From the sequence record NC_055712.1: a DNA stretch of 64,000 nucleotides. One strand, written 5' to 3'. Positions 27,502-37,919 of this stretch are shown here, one piece after another; position 1 is the stretch's first letter, and each line of letters starts with the position of its first letter. The position numbers and the translations under genes were made by a program. The notes below the pieces were generated by a model, which saw nothing but the letters and a program-made list of their open reading frames with translations, did not search any database and was not told the DNA's origin. The DNA comes from Escherichia phage phT4A.

Positions 27502-28071
27502 ATGAACTTAAATCACGAATGTTTAAAAGATTTGAGCGATGGTAACGAGATTGGTAACGTTATTTTTCTTGATATCGATGGCGTTCTAAATAATATGCGG
27601 TGCATGAAATTTGGTGAACATATGGACATCGAATGCGCACGACACTTACGCCGGATAGTGAATCACGCTAATTGTGATATCGTCATTTCCTCTACGTGGA
27701 GAATCGGCAACAGTACCCATAATCTACGTGAAATATTTTATCCGTGGGGATTGTATCGGATCATTGGTAAAACTTGCACTAACTTCCCTCATAGCACTGG
27801 AATGCGTGGTGATGAAATCAAGGCATGGATCGATACTTTCGGATGTAAAAACTATCTCATTCTTGATGATGACACCGATATGCTTTCTTCACAAAAAGAT
27901 CATTTTATTAACACTGATGGGTTTGTTGGGTTGACCGAAGAACAATCCACTTATGCGATCCGTAACATTTTCGGGGTTACTACTCCGTTTTGTCCTGAAT
28001 GCAATGGGTATGGACGTGTTAACGGCTACGACAAATGCGGAACGTGTAACGGTAAAATACTCCGGCTATAA
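27502..28071 (+). CDS. HAD-superfamily phosphatase-like protein with C-terminal zinc ribbon
   Basis: 189 aa; HAD motif I VIFLDIDGVLNN near the N-terminus, ILDDD later; CPECNGYG...CGTCNG at the C-terminus. Confidence 0.6.
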   Translation: MNLNHECLKDLSDGNEIGNVIFLDIDGVLNNMRCMKFGEHMDIECARHLRRIVNHANCDIVISSTWRIGNSTHNLREIFYPWGLYRIIGKTCTNFPHSTGMRGDEIKAWIDTFGCKNYLILDDDTDMLSSQKDHFINTDGFVGLTEEQSTYAIRNIFGVTTPFCPECNGYGRVNGYDKCGTCNGKILRL

Positions 28072-28932: not shown

Positions 28933-29451
28933 ATGAATACACTTCTTTTTGATTTCGACGACACTTTAGCAGAATTTTCTCAGACTTTTTATGATAAGTT
29001 CGGTGTACGTCCGGAAGGAACGCCAAAAGAACGATATGACGAAATGGCGGCTTCTTTGGTGCGTACTGATTTTTATAAAAACCTTCCCCGTATTCAGGCT
29101 GGGATTGACCTCCTTCAATGGAGTTTCCAACGCCGAATCGGTGATCCTGCTACTTTGCTGCTTCGCGCGGAAGCGGTCAGCCCTCTTTGGGTTATGAAAG
29201 AAAAACTGAACTATACAGATAAGATTTGCGCTGAACTGGGGATCCCTCGTCTCGATTTTAGTCGCATTGACTATCCGGAACAGTTCGCAGAACATGCCTA
29301 TCGTGGTGTTCTGATTTCCCGCAACCAGAAACATCTTGAAATCTGGAACAATTCTCATCTAGCTAATAAAGTTCCTGGTATTTTCCTTGCGGAAACCCTG
29401 GAAGAAAATATTCAGCTAGTCACGGAAGCGCTTGCAAAGGCTAATCAATAA
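28933..29451 (+). CDS. HAD-superfamily hydrolase-like protein
   Basis: 172 aa; N-terminal LLFDFDDTLAEF (DxDx(T/V) motif I). Confidence 0.5.
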   Translation: MNTLLFDFDDTLAEFSQTFYDKFGVRPEGTPKERYDEMAASLVRTDFYKNLPRIQAGIDLLQWSFQRRIGDPATLLLRAEAVSPLWVMKEKLNYTDKICAELGIPRLDFSRIDYPEQFAEHAYRGVLISRNQKHLEIWNNSHLANKVPGIFLAETLEENIQLVTEALAKANQ

Positions 29452-29458
29452 CAAAAAA

Positions 29459-29485
29459 GGGAACCGCAATGGTTCCCTTTCTTTT
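29459..29485. terminator. bidirectional terminator between convergent genes (gggaacc-gcaat-ggttccc + T tract)
   Basis: 7-bp GC stem, A tract upstream, T tract downstream. Confidence 0.6.
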
Positions 29486-29948
29486 ACAATCTTTTTAATT
29501 CATCAAGCGCTGTTTTCTTATCACCAACAAAGAGGATTGCTTTACCTCCTGCTTTTCTGAAAGGCAACACCGCTTTTGCCCGATCGTCAAACAGAATTCC
29601 TTTACCAGCGAATGCTGCTTTTTCATGGCTACTTTTAACGTAGTGGAATTCTGGAACGTAACCCAATACTTTTTGTAATGCTTTACGTTTTTGTTCGGCA
29701 ACACCGTCAGAATTGAATTTACCGACACTGGTTAGTATTGCTACATCACCAAGTGTTCTTAAATGATGGAATAATTCAAATCCTTCTTTGATTGGTTCCA
29801 GATTTTCGTAGAAATCAGTTTTGGCAATTTTTGCTTTGCACTTTTTCAACTCATCTTCTGTCATCATAGAGGGTTCGCCATACATTGGCACAAATGAACC
29901 TTCCCAGTCGAACAATACACCATCCATATCAAAGAAAAACTTATTCAT
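29484..29948 (-). CDS. HAD-family 5'(3')-deoxyribonucleotidase-like phosphatase
   Basis: 154 aa; FFFDMDGVLFDW at the N-terminus, characteristic of NT5C-type HAD nucleotidases. Confidence 0.6.
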   Translation of the reverse strand: MNKFFFDMDGVLFDWEGSFVPMYGEPSMMTEDELKKCKAKIAKTDFYENLEPIKEGFELFHHLRTLGDVAILTSVGKFNSDGVAEQKRKALQKVLGYVPEFHYVKSSHEKAAFAGKGILFDDRAKAVLPFRKAGGKAILFVGDKKTALDELKRL

Positions 29949-29997: not shown

Positions 29998-30837
29998 TCA
30001 ACCCCAAGTGTCAGTTTTCGGTGCGTATGCTGCAACTTTAGCCACAATTTCCTTATCCAGTTCAGCTACAGATTTCTGAGGCTTACCACGGGCTTTAACT
30101 TTGATGTAGTTTGACTTAACAACAAACATCCCTTTGTTACTTGATTTCTTGATCTCGCTATCAACACCAACTTTGTTAAAGCTGATCCAAATGTCGCCGT
30201 CCATATACTGTTTAAGAGAATCACCCATGTTCAGGATCTTCGCCATAGTAAGGGCCGCGCCTTCGTGGGTATCCATGAGAATTTCTTTAGGAACTACACG
30301 ATCGCGTTTCTGGTTCTGCTGCATAGCAATATGCACATCGTTCATAACCCATACGATATGTACGTTTTCTTTTTTGTATCCCAGCGTTTCGACATCACGT
30401 GCGATGCTTGCCAGCTTGCTCATGCCTTTTAACGTTACGTCAAAGATGAGGTTAGGTTTACGATCTTCTGGTGCTGCCATAATACCGGAATAAACACGGT
30501 TTTGGTTTTTGTTGGAAATGTTGAAAACGTCGGCGATCACATGATGGAGGGTAGATACGTTTTCTGGGTTTTTGAGGTTCATTGTTTTGACATCATGACC
30601 CGTTTGTTTCTTGATCTCTGCTGCGAGTTTATCGCTACCCATTACAAGTTTTTTCAGGGCGTCAACGTCCAGGGTAATACCTTCGATGCCTAGCAGTTTT
30701 TCCAGTGTGAATCCTTTACCGGAACCAGCACCGCCAGCCAGAATAACAACCTGACCGAACTTAGGATAAGCACGGCCCCCGAAGGTGATCAGCGCTTCGG
30801 TTAAGGTGCTTTCTGTGAATTGTTTAAATGACTTCAT
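29998..30837 (-). CDS. glycine-rich-loop nucleotide-binding protein, NMP-kinase-like (function unknown)
   Basis: 279 aa; VVILAGGAGSGKGF resembles the adenylate/NMP-kinase P-loop (GxxGxGKG), later hhhhD (LIFDV) candidate Walker B. Confidence 0.5.
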   Translation of the reverse strand: MKSFKQFTESTLTEALITFGGRAYPKFGQVVILAGGAGSGKGFTLEKLLGIEGITLDVDALKKLVMGSDKLAAEIKKQTGHDVKTMNLKNPENVSTLHHVIADVFNISNKNQNRVYSGIMAAPEDRKPNLIFDVTLKGMSKLASIARDVETLGYKKENVHIVWVMNDVHIAMQQNQKRDRVVPKEILMDTHEGAALTMAKILNMGDSLKQYMDGDIWISFNKVGVDSEIKKSSNKGMFVVKSNYIKVKARGKPQKSVAELDKEIVAKVAAYAPKTDTWG

Positions 30838-30869: not shown

Positions 30870-30899
30870 TTGACATGCTTTCTGACAGTGGTGTATGGT
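30870..30899 (+). promoter_or_regulatory. sigma70-like early promoter (TTGACA-N18-TATGGT)
   Basis: Consensus -35 and acceptable -10 in the divergent intergenic region upstream of the 30952 ORF. Confidence 0.4.
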
Positions 30900-30951: not shown

Positions 30952-31827
30952 ATGAAAATCAATTTACATCGCTTCATTGTAGAATTTTCCCGCGACCGCG
31001 ACATGGACTCTTTCAACTACTACTCCCGTGAAATTGAAGATCGTTTTGCGGCTCATGTTGGGTTCCGTCGCCACCATACTCCTAAAATGCGCCCTGACCA
31101 CGATCCGAAGTATAGCCCTATCACATGGCAAGCCCCGATCAATGGTTACGTTGAAGGGATCCGGATCATGACTTTTAACGCGATGTATGGAAACGCTTTG
31201 ATCCATATTGCACGTGAGAAAAGGGCAGAATTCCCTAACGGCTGGCGTATTGATGAAGTGATTCAAACCCTTATGCAGTTACGACGTGAATACAAAGCTG
31301 GTATGTGTCTGCGTAATGAACAGTATCCGATGTATAAAACGTATGCCTATATCTCTAAGCATCTAATTAATTCCATGTTTTACATCGTTGGTAATCATGG
31401 TTCCGCTATAGATATCGGTTCTTATGAAATCGTGGCTTATGCTCGCGAACAAGGAAAGGCCGCTGCACTGAAAATCATTGAATCTGGTGCTATCATTCTT
31501 AACCATCGCATTGATACTATTGCTTACTATGGCGATCAGGTTGAGGTTGAAGGCGTACACCATGAACGATTCAACAAAGCCGTATTTGCTAAAAATGGTT
31601 ATGCTTATGGTAATGACATTATAACTTCTGCTATTCCTTTCGTTCGTCTAACTGTTGAAGGATTTGGAGAAAGGTTGCCTTATAAACTGTCAGAAGCTCA
31701 AATGTGTGCGGCTGCTGAAAGAATCGCCAAAAAGCGGAAAATGTATACCGATGAATACCTGGCGTATGTCAACAAGACAAAAGAAGATGTAGATCGAGAA
31801 ATTTCTTGCATGGATTTGTGCCTTTGA
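30952..31827 (+). CDS. hypothetical protein
   Basis: 291 aa ORF, no family recognised. Confidence 0.55.
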   Translation: MKINLHRFIVEFSRDRDMDSFNYYSREIEDRFAAHVGFRRHHTPKMRPDHDPKYSPITWQAPINGYVEGIRIMTFNAMYGNALIHIAREKRAEFPNGWRIDEVIQTLMQLRREYKAGMCLRNEQYPMYKTYAYISKHLINSMFYIVGNHGSAIDIGSYEIVAYAREQGKAAALKIIESGAIILNHRIDTIAYYGDQVEVEGVHHERFNKAVFAKNGYAYGNDIITSAIPFVRLTVEGFGERLPYKLSEAQMCAAAERIAKKRKMYTDEYLAYVNKTKEDVDREISCMDLCL

Positions 31828-31859
31828 TATAATGTAAGCATCTTTTAAAGGGAGGATGC

Positions 31860-32177
31860 ATGAAAACGATACATTGCAGAAATGAAAACGTTGTTTACTA
31901 TCACGGTTCGTGTACTGCTGCTGGTATTGAAAGCATGTTATTGCCTCCCTGTGATTCTGATACTCTGTCTGAAAAAGGCAGGAAGAAAAATTTAGACCGT
32001 GTTTTCTTTACCGCTGATATCGGGTTAGCTCGTATATACGCTGGAAGGGCCGCGCGTTCTATAGGTGGGGAACCTGTTCTGTACAGGGTTGTGTGTCCGG
32101 TTGATGTTGTATGCATGAACGAAGACAAAGGCGCGAGCGTTTACCATGCAGCATGGGCGTTTTGTGAGGAATTATGA
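31860..32177 (+). CDS. small ART-fold-like protein resembling the NAD-binding lobe of Tpt1/KptA RNA 2'-phosphotransferase (tentative)
   Basis: 105 aa; VYYHGS ... VFFTAD ... RIYAGRAAR...PVLYRV parallels KptA LYHGT ... VHLSAD ... ARKVGARHGSPVILTV. Confidence 0.35.
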   Translation: MKTIHCRNENVVYYHGSCTAAGIESMLLPPCDSDTLSEKGRKKNLDRVFFTADIGLARIYAGRAARSIGGEPVLYRVVCPVDVVCMNEDKGASVYHAAWAFCEEL

Positions 32178-32349
32178 ATGATAAAGTGTTGGCGTATCTC
32201 GTTTTCTTGCTGGGATATCGCTTAGAAGTGATGGGCGCGTATTCATCAATGTATGGTGATTTAACGGCTATCTGGATGGTTGGGTTAGGGGTTGCTTTTA
32301 CATTCCTTTCCTTTGCAATTGTTAATGAATCGGAAAAGGATATTGTATG
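32177..32349 (+). CDS. small hydrophobic protein (57 aa, two predicted membrane helices)
   Basis: ATG overlaps the upstream stop and its stop overlaps the next start; below the track cut-off. Confidence 0.4.
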
Positions 32350-32673
32350 AAACTATATCATGTGATCTACTCTGGTGTTTTAGGCATTGACAAACAAATG
32401 TTAGTTGATGTAATGTGTAAAAAACTCGATGAGCGAATTGGAACCCGATACAAAAATCATGTATCGGAAAGTATCTTCATCAACGTTGACCATCCAAATG
32501 ACATGGAAGAAATGGTTAATACTCTTGATGATCAGCAGATCCCGTTTGTTGACAATTTCAACATGAGCGCTGGAGTGTATACGGTAGTAACTTTTGTTCT
32601 AAAAAATGTTGACAGCCGAAACGATAGCGTGTTGAATGTAGTTGCAAAAATCGATTCTACCAAAGGAAAATAA
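32347..32673 (+). CDS. hypothetical protein
   Basis: 108 aa ORF, translationally coupled to neighbours. Confidence 0.5.
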   Translation: MKLYHVIYSGVLGIDKQMLVDVMCKKLDERIGTRYKNHVSESIFINVDHPNDMEEMVNTLDDQQIPFVDNFNMSAGVYTVVTFVLKNVDSRNDSVLNVVAKIDSTKGK

Positions 32674-33558: not shown

Positions 33559-34578
33559 ATGTTTAAGAAATATTCTTCTCTGACTAACCATTATGAAGGT
33601 AAGTTCATCAATGGTGTAATTATGAACGGGCTTACTGGCGGTGTGTGGGTTGCACGTGAAAAGATCCACGGTGCTAACTTTAGTTTTATCACCGATGACG
33701 GTATTACCGTTACCCCCGCAAAGCGTACTGATGTTGTTAAGCCAGCCGAAGATTTTTATGGCTGTTCAGCAGTAGTTGCAAAGTATTCCCCAGGGATCCG
33801 TAAGATGTGGGAAACCCTCAAAAAGACCGGAACTTATGATGATTTGGTTATTCAAGTCTACGGTGAATTTGCGGGGCGCGGTGTACAGAAAGATGTTGAT
33901 TACGGCGAAAAAGATTTCTATGTATTCGATATCCGTGTAAATGGTGAATTCCTTCCGGATAACCTGTGCTCGCTGATCTCTCGATCTCATGGCCTGAAAA
34001 TGGCCCCGCTGTTGGGATATGGTACTTTTGAAGAGATCAAAGAACTGCCGATCACGTTTGAATCTGTTGTGAATAAAGCAAATAGCGGCATTGGTAGCGA
34101 TAATACAGTATATGGTGAATTCGTATATCCTATCATGGAAGTTGAAGAGGGCAACATTGCAGAAGGTTTTGTAATGAAACCTGTTTCACCTGCTTTTATG
34201 CCAAACGGTGAACGCGTTGCAATCAAATGCAAAACAACCAAATTCACTGAGAAGAAAGCGAAGAAAGCAACCCGCTTTAATGCTCCGGTTTCATTGTCAG
34301 AAAAAGACAAAAACCAACTCGATGAGTTTGTTTGTTACCTTACAGAGAACCGTGTGAAAAACGTTCTTTCGAAACTGGATCTGGCTTCGATCACTGCGAA
34401 AGATTTTGGTCGCATTATGGGCTTAACTGTTCAGGATGCTATCGAAGAAATCAGCCGTAATCACGGGCCTTTCCTCGAACAGTTCGAAGACCCAGCAATG
34501 GCTAAGAAGCTGTTTGTAACCGAAGCCCAAAACATGATTCGCCCTGTATGGGGCAAAATCCTGAACCATGAATTTTAA
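33559..34578 (+). CDS. rnlB: RNA ligase 2 (RnlB)
   Basis: 339 aa; MFKKYSSL.NHY..KFI, GGxWVAREKIHG(A/T)NFS (active-site Lys motif), VFGEFAG.G(V/I)QK.VDYG(E/D)KDFYVFDI, VAIKCK, MGLTVQD as in T4 Rnl2. Confidence 0.93.
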   Translation: MFKKYSSLTNHYEGKFINGVIMNGLTGGVWVAREKIHGANFSFITDDGITVTPAKRTDVVKPAEDFYGCSAVVAKYSPGIRKMWETLKKTGTYDDLVIQVYGEFAGRGVQKDVDYGEKDFYVFDIRVNGEFLPDNLCSLISRSHGLKMAPLLGYGTFEEIKELPITFESVVNKANSGIGSDNTVYGEFVYPIMEVEEGNIAEGFVMKPVSPAFMPNGERVAIKCKTTKFTEKKAKKATRFNAPVSLSEKDKNQLDEFVCYLTENRVKNVLSKLDLASITAKDFGRIMGLTVQDAIEEISRNHGPFLEQFEDPAMAKKLFVTEAQNMIRPVWGKILNHEF

Positions 34579-35149
34579 TCAGATTCTGGTTGATGCAAAA
34601 GCGGCTACCCTGATCGGTAGCCGTAAACCTCCTGAACGTATCGCAAACATTGCTGTTAAAATCGGACGTGCTTTGAACGAACGCGGGATCAGGGCTTATT
34701 CTGGCGGCGCTCCTGGTATGGATAGTCACTTTCTGTTTGACTATAGTCCGGATAACAGATGTATAATCCTTCCTGATAACGGGTTTAACGGCCTTTTCTC
34801 AAACGGAAAGGATATCATCGACTTTCGAGATTTAAACACACAGAAAGCTGCTGACGAAGCCAGAAAGGTAGCAGGTAACTTCGATACACAGAATGAATAC
34901 GTTCAAAGAAGGTATGCGCGAAACACGATTCAAGTTCTTCGTGAAAATCTTGACAATCCAACTGATTTTGTTTTATTTTGGGCGGAAGAACGTGAAGGAT
35001 GTGTTAAAGGTGGAACCGCGATCGCTGTAAGATTGGCTAGGTTGTACAGGGTTCCATGTTTCAATCTCTTCAAAGAAAGTGTATTGAACGATGTGTGTGA
35101 TACGTTAGGGATCAATATCAAACCCCCAACGTTGGATTTTTTATGGTAA
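34568..35149 (+). CDS. SLOG/DprA-LOG-like Rossmann-fold protein (putative nucleotide-binding)
   Basis: 193 aa; IRAYSGGAPGMDSHF matches the SGGxxGxD signature of the DprA/Smf-LOG (SLOG) fold. Confidence 0.45.
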   Translation: MNFNQILVDAKAATLIGSRKPPERIANIAVKIGRALNERGIRAYSGGAPGMDSHFLFDYSPDNRCIILPDNGFNGLFSNGKDIIDFRDLNTQKAADEARKVAGNFDTQNEYVQRRYARNTIQVLRENLDNPTDFVLFWAEEREGCVKGGTAIAVRLARLYRVPCFNLFKESVLNDVCDTLGINIKPPTLDFLW

Positions 35150-36485: not shown

Positions 36486-37919
36486 ATGAACAACAAAACT
36501 TTCGAAGAACTGAACAGCATCATCACTTCCGTAGATTCCTATAAGGTTTCTCACTGGTCGCAATATCCAACTGGCTCCGAAGAGGCGCTGTTTTATATTG
36601 AATCTCGTGGTGGTAAATTTGATCAAGTAGTTACGGCTGGCTGTAACCGCCTTGCGCAAATCCTATCACGTCCGGTGACTATGGAAAACGTAGATTTTGC
36701 TAATCGGTTGTACAAAATGCACTTTGGGCGCGAAATCTTCAACTACAAAGGTTGGAAAGAAATTGCAGAACTGGGTTACATCCCTCTTGAATTCAGAGCG
36801 ATTCCGGAAGGAACCCCAGTAGCGGTTAAAAATCCGGTTGCAACTTTCCATGCTGGGAAAAATGCGCTGTGGTTAGCAGGACACGTAGAAACCCTGGCGA
36901 TCAGGGGAGTATGGTTCCCTTCAACCGTAGCAACTCTATCCCGCGAATGTAAAAAAGTGTTGAAGAAATATCTCAAGAAAACCTCCGATCTCGAAGGTGA
37001 AGCATTTGATATGGTATTACGTACCCGTTTGCATGACTTCGGCGCACGTGGAACCTCTTCTGCTGAATCTGCTGGTATTGGTGGCCTTGCTCATCTGTAT
37101 AACTTCCTCGGTACTGATACCGTAGAAGCGCTGATTATGGCTATCTCTCTGTTTGAAGATTGTCAGAAAGCGTTTGATGATGGTGAAATGGCGGCTGGTA
37201 TTTCAATTCCTGCTCGCGAACATTCCACTACCGTTTCTTACGGCAAAGAAAACGAAGACCTTGCATACAAAAACAGTATTGAGATCTTCGGTGAAGGGAT
37301 GTATGCATGTGTGTATGATTCCTGGGATTTTAAAGCGGCGGTTCGCCGTATCGCAGAATATAAAGATTCTATTCTTTCTAAGGGCGGTACTCTGGTAGTT
37401 CGTCCGGATTCTGGCGATATGGTAGACAATATCATGTACGCTCTTGAAGAACTGGGCCGTATCTTTGGCTATACAGTGAACTCAAAAGGGTATAAAGTAC
37501 TACACCCAGCAGTAAGGATCATTCAAGGCGATGAAATTCATGGCCCTGAAACAATCAATCGGGTGTTGAACTGGATGGAGTCTAACCGTTGGGCGTCTGA
37601 AAACATCGCGTTTGGTATGGGCGGCGGATTGCTTCAAGAAGTTACCCGCGACACTCAAAAATATGCGATGAAAATGTGCGCAATCAAAATTAACGGTGTG
37701 TGGACTGGTGTGTATAAATGTCCAAAAGGCGCTGAATGGAAAAAGAGTAAAAAAGGGTTGTTAATGACTATCACTGATGGTGTTAACTTTAAAACCATTG
37801 ATACTCTGGAACAGAAAGTGCCGGAAGGCTGGAAAGATGCTATGATCACATACTATGTCAACGGAAAGATTACTGCCCGTGACACTTTAGAGGAAATTAG
37901 GAACCGTGCCGGGATTTAG
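36486..37919 (+). CDS. nadV: nicotinamide phosphoribosyltransferase family protein (NadV/NAMPT-like)
   Basis: 477 aa; N-terminal DSYKVSHW signature, HDFGARG, GxGGGLLQ-type C-terminal block typical of the NAMPT family. Confidence 0.88.
   Translation: MNNKTFEELNSIITSVDSYKVSHWSQYPTGSEEALFYIESRGGKFDQVVTAGCNRLAQILSRPVTMENVDFANRLYKMHFGREIFNYKGWKEIAELGYIPLEFRAIPEGTPVAVKNPVATFHAGKNALWLAGHVETLAIRGVWFPSTVATLSRECKKVLKKYLKKTSDLEGEAFDMVLRTRLHDFGARGTSSAESAGIGGLAHLYNFLGTDTVEALIMAISLFEDCQKAFDDGEMAAGISIPAREHSTTVSYGKENEDLAYKNSIEIFGEGMYACVYDSWDFKAAVRRIAEYKDSILSKGGTLVVRPDSGDMVDNIMYALEELGRIFGYTVNSKGYKVLHPAVRIIQGDEIHGPETINRVLNWMESNRWASENIAFGMGGGLLQEVTRDTQKYAMKMCAIKINGVWTGVYKCPKGAEWKKSKKGLLMTITDGVNFKTIDTLEQKVPEGWKDAMITYYVNGKITARDTLEEIRNRAGI

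Follow-up and report, generated by a model that had tools for sequence, protein, structure and literature searches.

The stretch of DNA analyzed here (the window) comprises 64,000 nucleotides of Escherichia phage phT4A (NC_055712.1), and the gene in question is a short open reading frame (ORF) at 31860..32177 on the + strand. We lean, without great assurance, toward the view that its 105-amino-acid (aa) product is a complete, stand-alone, minimal ADP-ribosyltransferase (ART) of the Arr clade (the H-Y-[EDQ] or diphtheria-toxin-like type), active on a conserved acceptor other than rifamycin. An initial annotation of the window had likened the protein to the NAD-binding lobe of Tpt1/KptA and had left two readings, a fragment of an NAD-dependent RNA 2′-phosphotransferase or a small ART. 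The ORF and the motifs that it had picked out (VYYHGS, residues 12-17; VFFTAD, 48-53; RIYAGRAAR, 58-66; PVLYRV, 72-77) are all present, and its second alternative is the reading reached here from an Arr-clade fold and homology. The gene and its ribosome-binding site are as follows.

31860..32177, + strand: ORF with ATG start, 105 aa, 11.6 kDa, pI 6.3; identified from the ORF list, phrog_2110, AlphaFold2 and ART-fold matches.
31850..31856, + strand: Shine-Dalgarno-like purine-rich GGGAGGA, read from the sequence, upstream of the ATG.

The site homologous to GGGAGGA is annotated as a ribosome-binding site in phage KLB15, and the stop codon of the ART gene overlaps the start of the next gene (ATGA at 32174-32177). 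A chance reading frame was dismissed because tblastn found the gene in 608 of 50,697 phage records (E down to 3e-66), because the protein aligned end to end with phrog_2110 ("unknown function"; E 2.5e-60), and because a hidden Markov model (HMM) search of 1.84 billion cluster representatives returned 231 relatives at E ≤ 0.001; judged from these matches, 31860..32177 is a genuine gene. It is also complete, autonomous and highly conserved, and not the fragment first suggested. Over 2.2 kb, the window matches Klebsiella phages of the KP15/Slopekvirus group (Straboviridae) with 100% identity.

A model of the 105-aa protein was generated with AlphaFold2 from a 34-sequence T4-like alignment (A1) and had a predicted local distance difference test score (pLDDT) of 86.2 and a predicted template-modeling score (pTM) of 0.77. 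Strands were placed at residues 13-18, 48-51, 72-81, 84-87, 94-97 and 99-104 and a long helix at 54-68, which corresponds in the model to an ART core of six strands and one long helix. Structure comparison returned the following entries, with figures as given by the comparison.

KptA 9ld3_A: 8.4; 73; 1.8 Å.
Arr 9iaf_A: 8.0; 86; 2.5 Å.
AcrIF11: 6.0; 70; 3.1 Å.

Diphtheria toxin, OspC3, DarT1, pertussis-like toxins and PARPs came next. Foldseek ranked Arr (9iaf and 2hw2) first with a probability of 1.00, followed by Tpt1/KptA (9LD3, 7KW9) with probabilities of 0.38-0.44 and TM scores of 0.34-0.36. Both searches thus recovered ART folds, confirming the fold that had been proposed, and the likeness to the KptA NAD lobe is genuine at the level of structure.

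Searched alone against Pfam, NCBIfam, PADLOC and PDB sequences, the 105-aa protein returned nothing meaningful, and the narrow T4-like profile gave no useful match among PDB sequences; Arr was reached only with a widened alignment (A2). With the A2 family profile, the top match among PDB sequences was Arr-ms (E 0.02), and hhalign of A2 against an Arr alignment (A5) gave a probability of 93.7% and an E of 1.9e-7 over 70 columns, covering residues 9-84. The Pfam Arr-ms model (PF12120) was matched by 15 of 45 domain sequences, by 31 of 54 multidomain relatives (best E 1.8e-9) and by a 618-aa jumbo-phage protein. Several relatives scored 25.5-29.4 bits (P0132, 27.5; P0150, 29.4; P0130, 26.9), above the gathering score of 25, and Pfam matches in relatives ended at model position 66-67 of 99. 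Because PF12120 was matched by relatives, because the A2 profile and hhalign both led to Arr, and because no Tpt1 model was matched (PF01885 had no match to the window protein or the 45 relatives at the thresholds used), the phage family is placed by sequence as a sister of Arr, homologous to the N-terminal two thirds of that enzyme.

Conservation was read from 45 family sequences with identities down to 32%. H15, G16, E38, R41, F49, A57, Y60, A61, G69, G70 and G91 were invariant in all 45. The elements of the predicted NAD pocket, with their Arr-ms counterparts in the alignment, are as follows.

31899..31910, + strand: codons of Y14-H15-G16-S17 in strand β1; the HG[ST] NAD-binding motif and ART triad position 1, H15-G16-S17 pairing with Arr-ms H19-G20-T21.
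31956..31991, + strand: codons of T33...S37-E38-K39-G40-R41-K42-K43-N44, a conserved basic loop between β1 and β2; [ST]33 pairs with Arr-ms S37 of the S[NH][YF] motif and E38-K-G-R41 with Arr-ms E40-A-G-R43.
32001..32012, + strand: codons of V48-F49-F50-T51 in strand β2; F49 lies at Arr-ms Y49 (triad position 2), F49-F-T51 pairing with Arr-ms Y49-I-T51.
32028..32051, + strand: codons of A57...Y60-A61-G62-R63-A64 in the long helix; Y60 pairs with Arr-ms W59.
32118..32126, + strand: codons of N87-E88-D89, directly past strand 84-87; N87-E88 pairs approximately with Arr-ms D83-D84, a candidate third catalytic position.

Positions 1 (H15) and 2 (F49) of the ART superfamily triad are therefore occupied in 45 of 45 sequences, and the residues expected to line the NAD+ pocket (H15-G16-[ST]17, [ST]33, E38-x-G-R41, F49/T51 and Y60) are invariant and look intact. 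Y60 is placed 11 residues past F49, and a spacing of 11 is that of diphtheria-toxin-type ARTs. The pairing of N87-E88 with D83-D84 was obtained by extrapolating the HMM alignment by 2-3 residues. Position 87 is N in 31 of 45 sequences and always polar, position 88 is D or E in 31 of 45, and an acid occurs at 87-89 in 31 of 34 T4-like members versus 32 of 45 in the wider family. The loop at residues 33-44 aligns with Arr-ms S37-N-F39-E40-A-G-R43, the loop that gates the Arr NAD pocket, for which the role of the Phe39 loop has been described (bioRxiv 10.64898/2026.05.04.722716); by analogy, loop 33-44 of the phage protein may gate its NAD pocket.

Arr (PF12120; PDB 2HW2, 9IAF) is likewise a minimal single-domain ART, among the smallest known, and has in common with the phage family HG[ST], the [ST] of S[NH][YF], the E-x-G-R loop, the aromatic residue and T on the following strand, the A...aromatic pattern in the helix, the G-rich turn and the V-x-P-x-G strand. 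It differs in length (~140-150 aa versus 105 aa), in having Y49 where the phage family has an invariant F, in the 100% conservation of catalytic D84 where the matching N87/E88 is a variable N-[D/E], in E38, which is invariant in the phage family and not in Arr, and in being found on bacterial chromosomes and in integrons, whereas the 105-aa family is found in lytic phages. The HGT and S[NH][YF] motifs, the 100% conservation of Y49 within Arr and the rifamycin sites have been described (PMC8492726); site 1 consists of residues 87-95 and site 2 of residues 126-133, in helix α2 (PMC8492726). The phage protein ends (residue 105) at about the end of the Arr β-core, so that site 2 is absent, and two features of the Arr alignment, the ~10 additional residues of the site-1 loop and a C-terminal extension of ~35 residues, are both missing. 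The NCBIfam equivalog model rifampin_ARR (NF033144) was not matched by the window protein; relatives scored 18.7-25.7 bits over model positions 2-70 of 131, with an equivalog cut-off of 130 bits. The KLB15 orthologue (PP526028.1, L001 6961..7278; XAO34737.1) was deposited as "rifampin ADP-ribosyl transferase", a name that is over-specific because F replaces Y49, the D84 position is variable, site 2 is absent and the scores lie far below the equivalog cut-off.

The proposed sequence of events is as follows. The ART gene would be transcribed early together with the surrounding + strand accessory genes. The protein would bind NAD+, release nicotinamide and move one ADP-ribose to an acceptor, with N87/E88 or the invariant E38 helping oxocarbenium formation, and the phage's NadV would help keep NAD+ available. 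The acceptor, a molecule other than rifamycin, would be conserved among hosts from Enterobacteriaceae, Acinetobacter, Aeromonas and Vibrio; the likeliest candidate is a protein or nucleic acid of the host that is modified as infection begins, given the precedents of T4 Alt/Mod and of ARTs delivered in polyvalent proteins. T4-like phages have other ARTs in T4 Alt, ModA and ModB, which draw on host NAD+ early in infection to modify host proteins and RNA-linked targets; unlike the 105-aa protein, they belong to the R-S-E clade (PMC5512222), are larger and have no sequence homology to it. The anti-CRISPR mono-ART AcrIF11 (PDB 6KYF) differs in having a known target, the Csy complex, and a sequence relationship to the phage protein could not be detected. 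For early transcription, one element was considered.

30870..30899, + strand: sigma-70-like promoter TTGACA-18-TATGGT, upstream of a 291-aa ORF; from a consensus scan, tentative.

From 30952 to past 35661, + strand ORFs are contiguous or overlapping, the ART gene among them, and the site at 30870 is tentatively taken as the probable early promoter of this co-directional run.

The gene is widely distributed and strongly conserved. Among the 608 phage records, hosts were Escherichia (214), Klebsiella (116), Acinetobacter (68), Aeromonas (62) and others; carriers were nearly all T4-like, with a few Vibrio phages of 100-150 kb. AcrIF11 has a much narrower distribution. Compared with Aeromonas phage avDM5, the ART was 68.6% identical and capsid vertex protein gp24 55.9%, with Hoc at 35.5%, an Srd-like protein at 34% and the 291-aa upstream ORF at 27%; by this sequence comparison, the ART is under stronger purifying selection than the core capsid protein gp24. 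Solo homologues of 99-148 aa were found on uncultured viral contigs of 16-145 kb and in two metagenome-assembled genomes (MAGs) of candidate phyla radiation (CPR) bacteria. An origin from plasmids or bacteria was rejected: no plasmid matched the ART, and 185,579 species genomes contained 8 loci only, of which 3 were T4-like phage contigs, 2 were CPR MAGs, 1 was a short alphaproteobacterial MAG fragment and 2 were spurious matches in Shewanella. The CPR homologues (L011 5902..6348, Candidatus Kaiserbacteria MAG; L012 5890..6321, Patescibacteria MAG) are 143-148 aa, 44-49% identical and carry an added helix-rich N-terminal extension; that of L011 adjoins an insertion sequence (IS)-type integrase/transposase ORF.

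Several points weigh against an Arr-clade transferase expressed early in infection. Strict conservation is lacking at the canonical third catalytic acid, 13 of 45 sequences having no acid at 87-89; the tyrosine of the H-Y-[EDQ] triad is an invariant phenylalanine (F49); and E38, N87 and E88 are assigned to the predicted NAD site from the alignments, as candidate positions. The window protein fell below every Pfam and NCBIfam threshold and did not match PF12120 at E ≤ 1, and hhalign of the narrow T4-like alignment against Arr gave a probability of 36.5% only. Early expression, which is argued from gene order and a consensus match, is weak, and because the number of sites in the promoter scan was not above the shuffled expectation, the timing of ART expression remains conjectural. 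Effectors in an arms race are not typically so strongly conserved, and the conservation could point instead to a substrate that is metabolic or a nucleic acid. Full-text literature searches found no biochemical or genetic characterization of any family member.

Many of the 231 HMM relatives are parts of much longer polypeptides, the largest of 3,924 aa. Domains fused to the module in the 54 multidomain relatives included ART-PolyVal (8), NUDIX (3), DUF7178 (3), and also GNAT, Toprim, lambda-type portal, minor-tail domain, LPD23, CHAP, 2H/Acb1-like phosphoesterase and ddrB-ParB; such mixtures are hallmarks of phage polyvalent proteins, which have been proposed to accompany the DNA into the host and to have their targets there (PMC5512222). 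ART-PolyVal (PF18760; Tox-ART-HYD2 clade), known from polyvalent proteins of phages and conjugative elements, is an ART of the H-Y-D type for which a role in modifying host proteins at entry has been proposed (PMC5512222). It occurs in the same giant proteins, often adjoining the Arr-like module, but is a separate Pfam family, and PF18760 was matched neither by the window protein nor by the homologous segments of its relatives. In P0159, for example, PF18760 lies at 1501-1617 and the Arr-like segment at 1714-1802, with NUDIX after the module. In P0135 (3735 aa), P0137 (354 aa) and P0159 (1955 aa), the Arr-like module stands directly beside ART-PolyVal, so that a single polypeptide carries two distinct ART domains in a row, and in P0162 the module is flanked by a lambda-type portal domain and a 2H/Acb1-like phosphoesterase. 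The 2017 survey of polyvalent proteins (PMC5512222) described ART-PolyVal and did not mention the Arr-like module; the 2022 survey of NAD-ADPr functions in viruses (PMC9503650) named Arr only for actinophages and Sinorhizobium phage PBC5, and neither survey, both from the Aravind group, mentioned the T4-like family.

A bolder extension of the Arr-clade assignment, which we regard as possible and put forward tentatively, is that the solo proteins form a fourth class of ARTs in T4-like phages, having an Arr core without the drug-binding elements and a new kind of acceptor conserved across Gammaproteobacteria (e.g., the end of a nucleic acid, an immune signal derived from a nucleotide or a site on a host protein that is universally conserved). 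The same module would then serve as a warhead in virion-delivered polyvalent proteins, and Arr would be a specialized offshoot or a sister of a much larger phage-borne ART family. The fold assignment itself is not new, because phrog_2110 is catalogued and a few annotators have named the protein an ADP-ribosyl transferase; what appears to be new is the formal link to Arr, the finding that the protein is without the defining substrate-binding parts of Arr and Tpt1, and the link to the Arr-like module in polyvalent proteins. Connecting the solo T4-like proteins, Arr and the polyvalent module extends the Arr family well past antibiotic resistance. The gene is present in at least 608 sequenced phages, many of them therapeutic candidates against Klebsiella, E. 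coli, Acinetobacter and Enterobacter; its conservation exceeds that of a core capsid protein, and yet its annotation is "hypothetical" almost everywhere. A predicted, conserved host-modifying enzymatic activity is therefore unaccounted for in these phages. The rifampin label, which a few GenBank records carry, could falsely flag therapeutic phages as carriers of an antibiotic-resistance gene. At 11.6 kDa, the protein is a tractable model for an acceptor search, and a new acceptor, if this proves true, would add to the ADP-ribosylation chemistry of phage-host conflict.

The Tpt1/KptA identity initially suggested did not hold, since sequence homology leads to Arr and PF01885 was unmatched. Tpt1/KptA, unlike the phage protein, has an N-terminal winged-helix RNA lobe and an H at the second motif position. 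The R-H-R-R tetrad of Tpt1 depends largely on this N-lobe. In the phage protein there is no winged-helix RNA lobe, because just 12 residues, of low pLDDT, precede β1, and the second position is an invariant F, versus the H of the Tpt1 H-H-h signature, which has been described together with the R-H-R-R catalytic tetrad (PMC8120803). The initial annotation had proposed checking whether the 291-aa ORF upstream supplies the RNA-binding lobe. Its low-confidence model matched family-B DNA polymerases, and the sequence contains a motif A-like [TS]-F-N-x-M-Y with the catalytic Asp replaced, a motif B-like K136-x-x-x-N140-S and a motif C-like Y-Y-G-D195-Q; as modeled, it looks like a palm/fingers module of a family-B polymerase and has no winged helix. 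It was found in 203 phage records versus 608 for the ART, is missing from about two thirds of the ART carriers and lay beside the ART in 12 of 45 T4-like IMG/VR loci. A Tpt1 fragment was rejected on the missing RNA lobe, the missing PF01885 match and the polymerase-like upstream ORF.

A more general activity on nucleic-acid ends is the alternative that survives best and is nevertheless improbable. The protein would transfer ADP-ribose onto a terminal RNA or DNA phosphate (removing a 2′-PO4 or capping a 5′-phosphate), in the phage as part of an RNA-repair set with RnlB, HAD_SAK_2, NT5C phosphatases and a P-loop kinase. Pfam confirmed the RnlB, NadV and HAD phosphatase neighbors named initially, except for one HAD known from GenBank annotation only.

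27502..28071, + strand: 189-aa HAD_SAK_2 protein ("Swiss Army Knife RNA repair" HAD), E 5e-29.
28933..29451: third HAD candidate, from GenBank annotation only (5′-nucleotidase domain / 5′-3′ deoxyribonucleotidase); no Pfam match.
29484..29948: HAD-type NT5C, by Pfam.
33559..34578: RNA ligase 2 (RnlB), PF09414 + T4_Rnl2_C.
36486..37919: NadV/Nampt, PF04095 + NAMPT_N.

In favor of activity on nucleic-acid ends, the Slopekvirus locus combines HAD_SAK_2, a Zeta-toxin/AAA_33-like kinase, RNA ligase 2 and a DprA/SLOG-like protein; in Mosigvirus, the ART directly adjoins dmd, whose product counteracts the RNases RnlA and LsoA as an antidote; three relatives have a NUDIX fusion and one a fusion with a 2H phosphoesterase; the basic loop SEKGRKKN could bind phosphate; high conservation suits a universal substrate; and analogous NAD-dependent RNA-repair neighborhoods have been proposed for phage sirtuins (PMC9503650). 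The features that set the protein apart from Tpt1 all count against it: the winged-helix lobe is missing and with it the part on which the catalytic tetrad largely depends, the upstream ORF is polymerase-like and missing from most carriers, PF01885 is unmatched, and F stands in place of H. The window protein is near neutral (pI 6.3), although as a hint of nucleic-acid binding charge is uninformative (family median pI 7.7-9.2). Proximity to RnlB, NadV and HADs, which had been taken as a clue, proved lineage-specific, because neighbors vary and none is constant over 45 T4-like IMG/VR loci: RnlB lay within 5 kb in 11 loci, dmd was adjacent in 9, and gp41 and gp61 lay within 5 kb in 14 and 16, respectively. 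An RNA-damage theme (dmd, RnlB, HAD_SAK_2) does recur near the ART.

Somewhat less probable is that the ART fold serves without transfer activity and binds NAD+ or an ADP-ribose derivative, for example as a sponge for ADP-ribose-based immune signals, or acts as a plain NAD+ glycohydrolase. The pocket residues are invariant where the canonical catalytic acid is not, ~100 aa is a typical size for phage signal sponges, and strong conservation suits a fixed small-molecule ligand. Yet no sign of an oligomeric sponge architecture was seen, stoichiometric sequestration would be ineffective for a domain that is single inside large multi-enzyme polyvalent proteins, an NADase would oppose the phage's own NadV salvage enzyme, and the polar residue always kept at 87 and the acid at 87-89 in most T4-like members point to a transferase.

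Most doubtful is a rifamycin-type small-molecule ART that inactivates compounds resembling rifamycin, other diffusible antibiotics or anti-phage molecules, or immune signals derived from ADP-ribose: Arr is the nearest family by sequence profile, XAO34737.1 bears the rifampin name, Arr-family genes of other phages have been proposed to act against antibiotics or diffusible immune compounds (PMC9503650), and for Arr, whose contacts with rifampin are loose, another primary function has been suggested (PMC8120803), but homology is confined to positions ~1-70 of the 99 in the Pfam model and 2-70 of the 131 in the NCBIfam model, no relative exceeds 25.7 bits with rifampin_ARR, site 2 and part of the site-1 loop are missing (PMC8492726), F replaces Y49, and protecting RNA polymerase would be of doubtful value because the hosts are Gram-negative, the phages strictly lytic and infection a matter of minutes.

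The gene order around the ART differs among lineages. In Slopekvirus, Karamvirus and Aeromonas phages, hoc and uvsW are close to the ART, and the PolB-like ORF precedes it. Mosigvirus has the ART between gene 41 and dmd, and Acinetobacter Lazarusvirus has it between 41 and 61, close to a DUF7275/DUF7277 protein. In T4, all that separates dmd from 41 at the syntenic site is a gap of 58 bp. Downstream of the phT4A ART, and translationally coupled to it by the ATGA, is a gene for a 58-aa predicted membrane protein (phrog_7619; 32174..32350, + strand), which is kept in Slopekvirus and Karamvirus only (9 of 45 loci); the coupled gene in Mosigvirus is dmd. A conserved partner, immunity or antitoxin gene was rejected, the downstream gene being the 58-aa membrane protein, dmd or, in Acinetobacter and Aeromonas phages, unrelated small ORFs.

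Further observations were made on the neighboring genes. The protein encoded at 27502..28071 has a DnaJ-type CXXCXGXG zinc-finger-like tail after HAD_SAK_2. Divergent from the ART operon, 29998..30837 (- strand) encodes a 279-aa P-loop (poly)nucleotide-kinase-like protein (Zeta_toxin, E 2.8e-7; weak AAA_33). HAD_SAK_2, RnlB, the two NT5C-type HADs and the P-loop kinase together suggest an RNA-end-healing gene set in this phage. A 193-aa DprA/SLOG-like protein (34568..35149, + strand), whose gene overlaps the end of RnlB, has weak matches to PF02481 and to PADLOC ShosA and PsyrA, which are components of defense systems; domains of the SLOG type have predicted roles in the handling of derivatives of nucleotides or ADP-ribose, and with the ART and NadV this gene makes the stretch rich in NAD- and nucleotide-related genes. 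Finally, a perfect TATAAT lies at 31828-31833 (+ strand), 26 nucleotides before the ART ATG, with TTGCAT 16 nucleotides 5′ of it in a TGC-containing stretch that recalls the MotA box of T4 middle promoters; this element (31806..31833), which the consensus scan did not report, may be the ART gene's own promoter.

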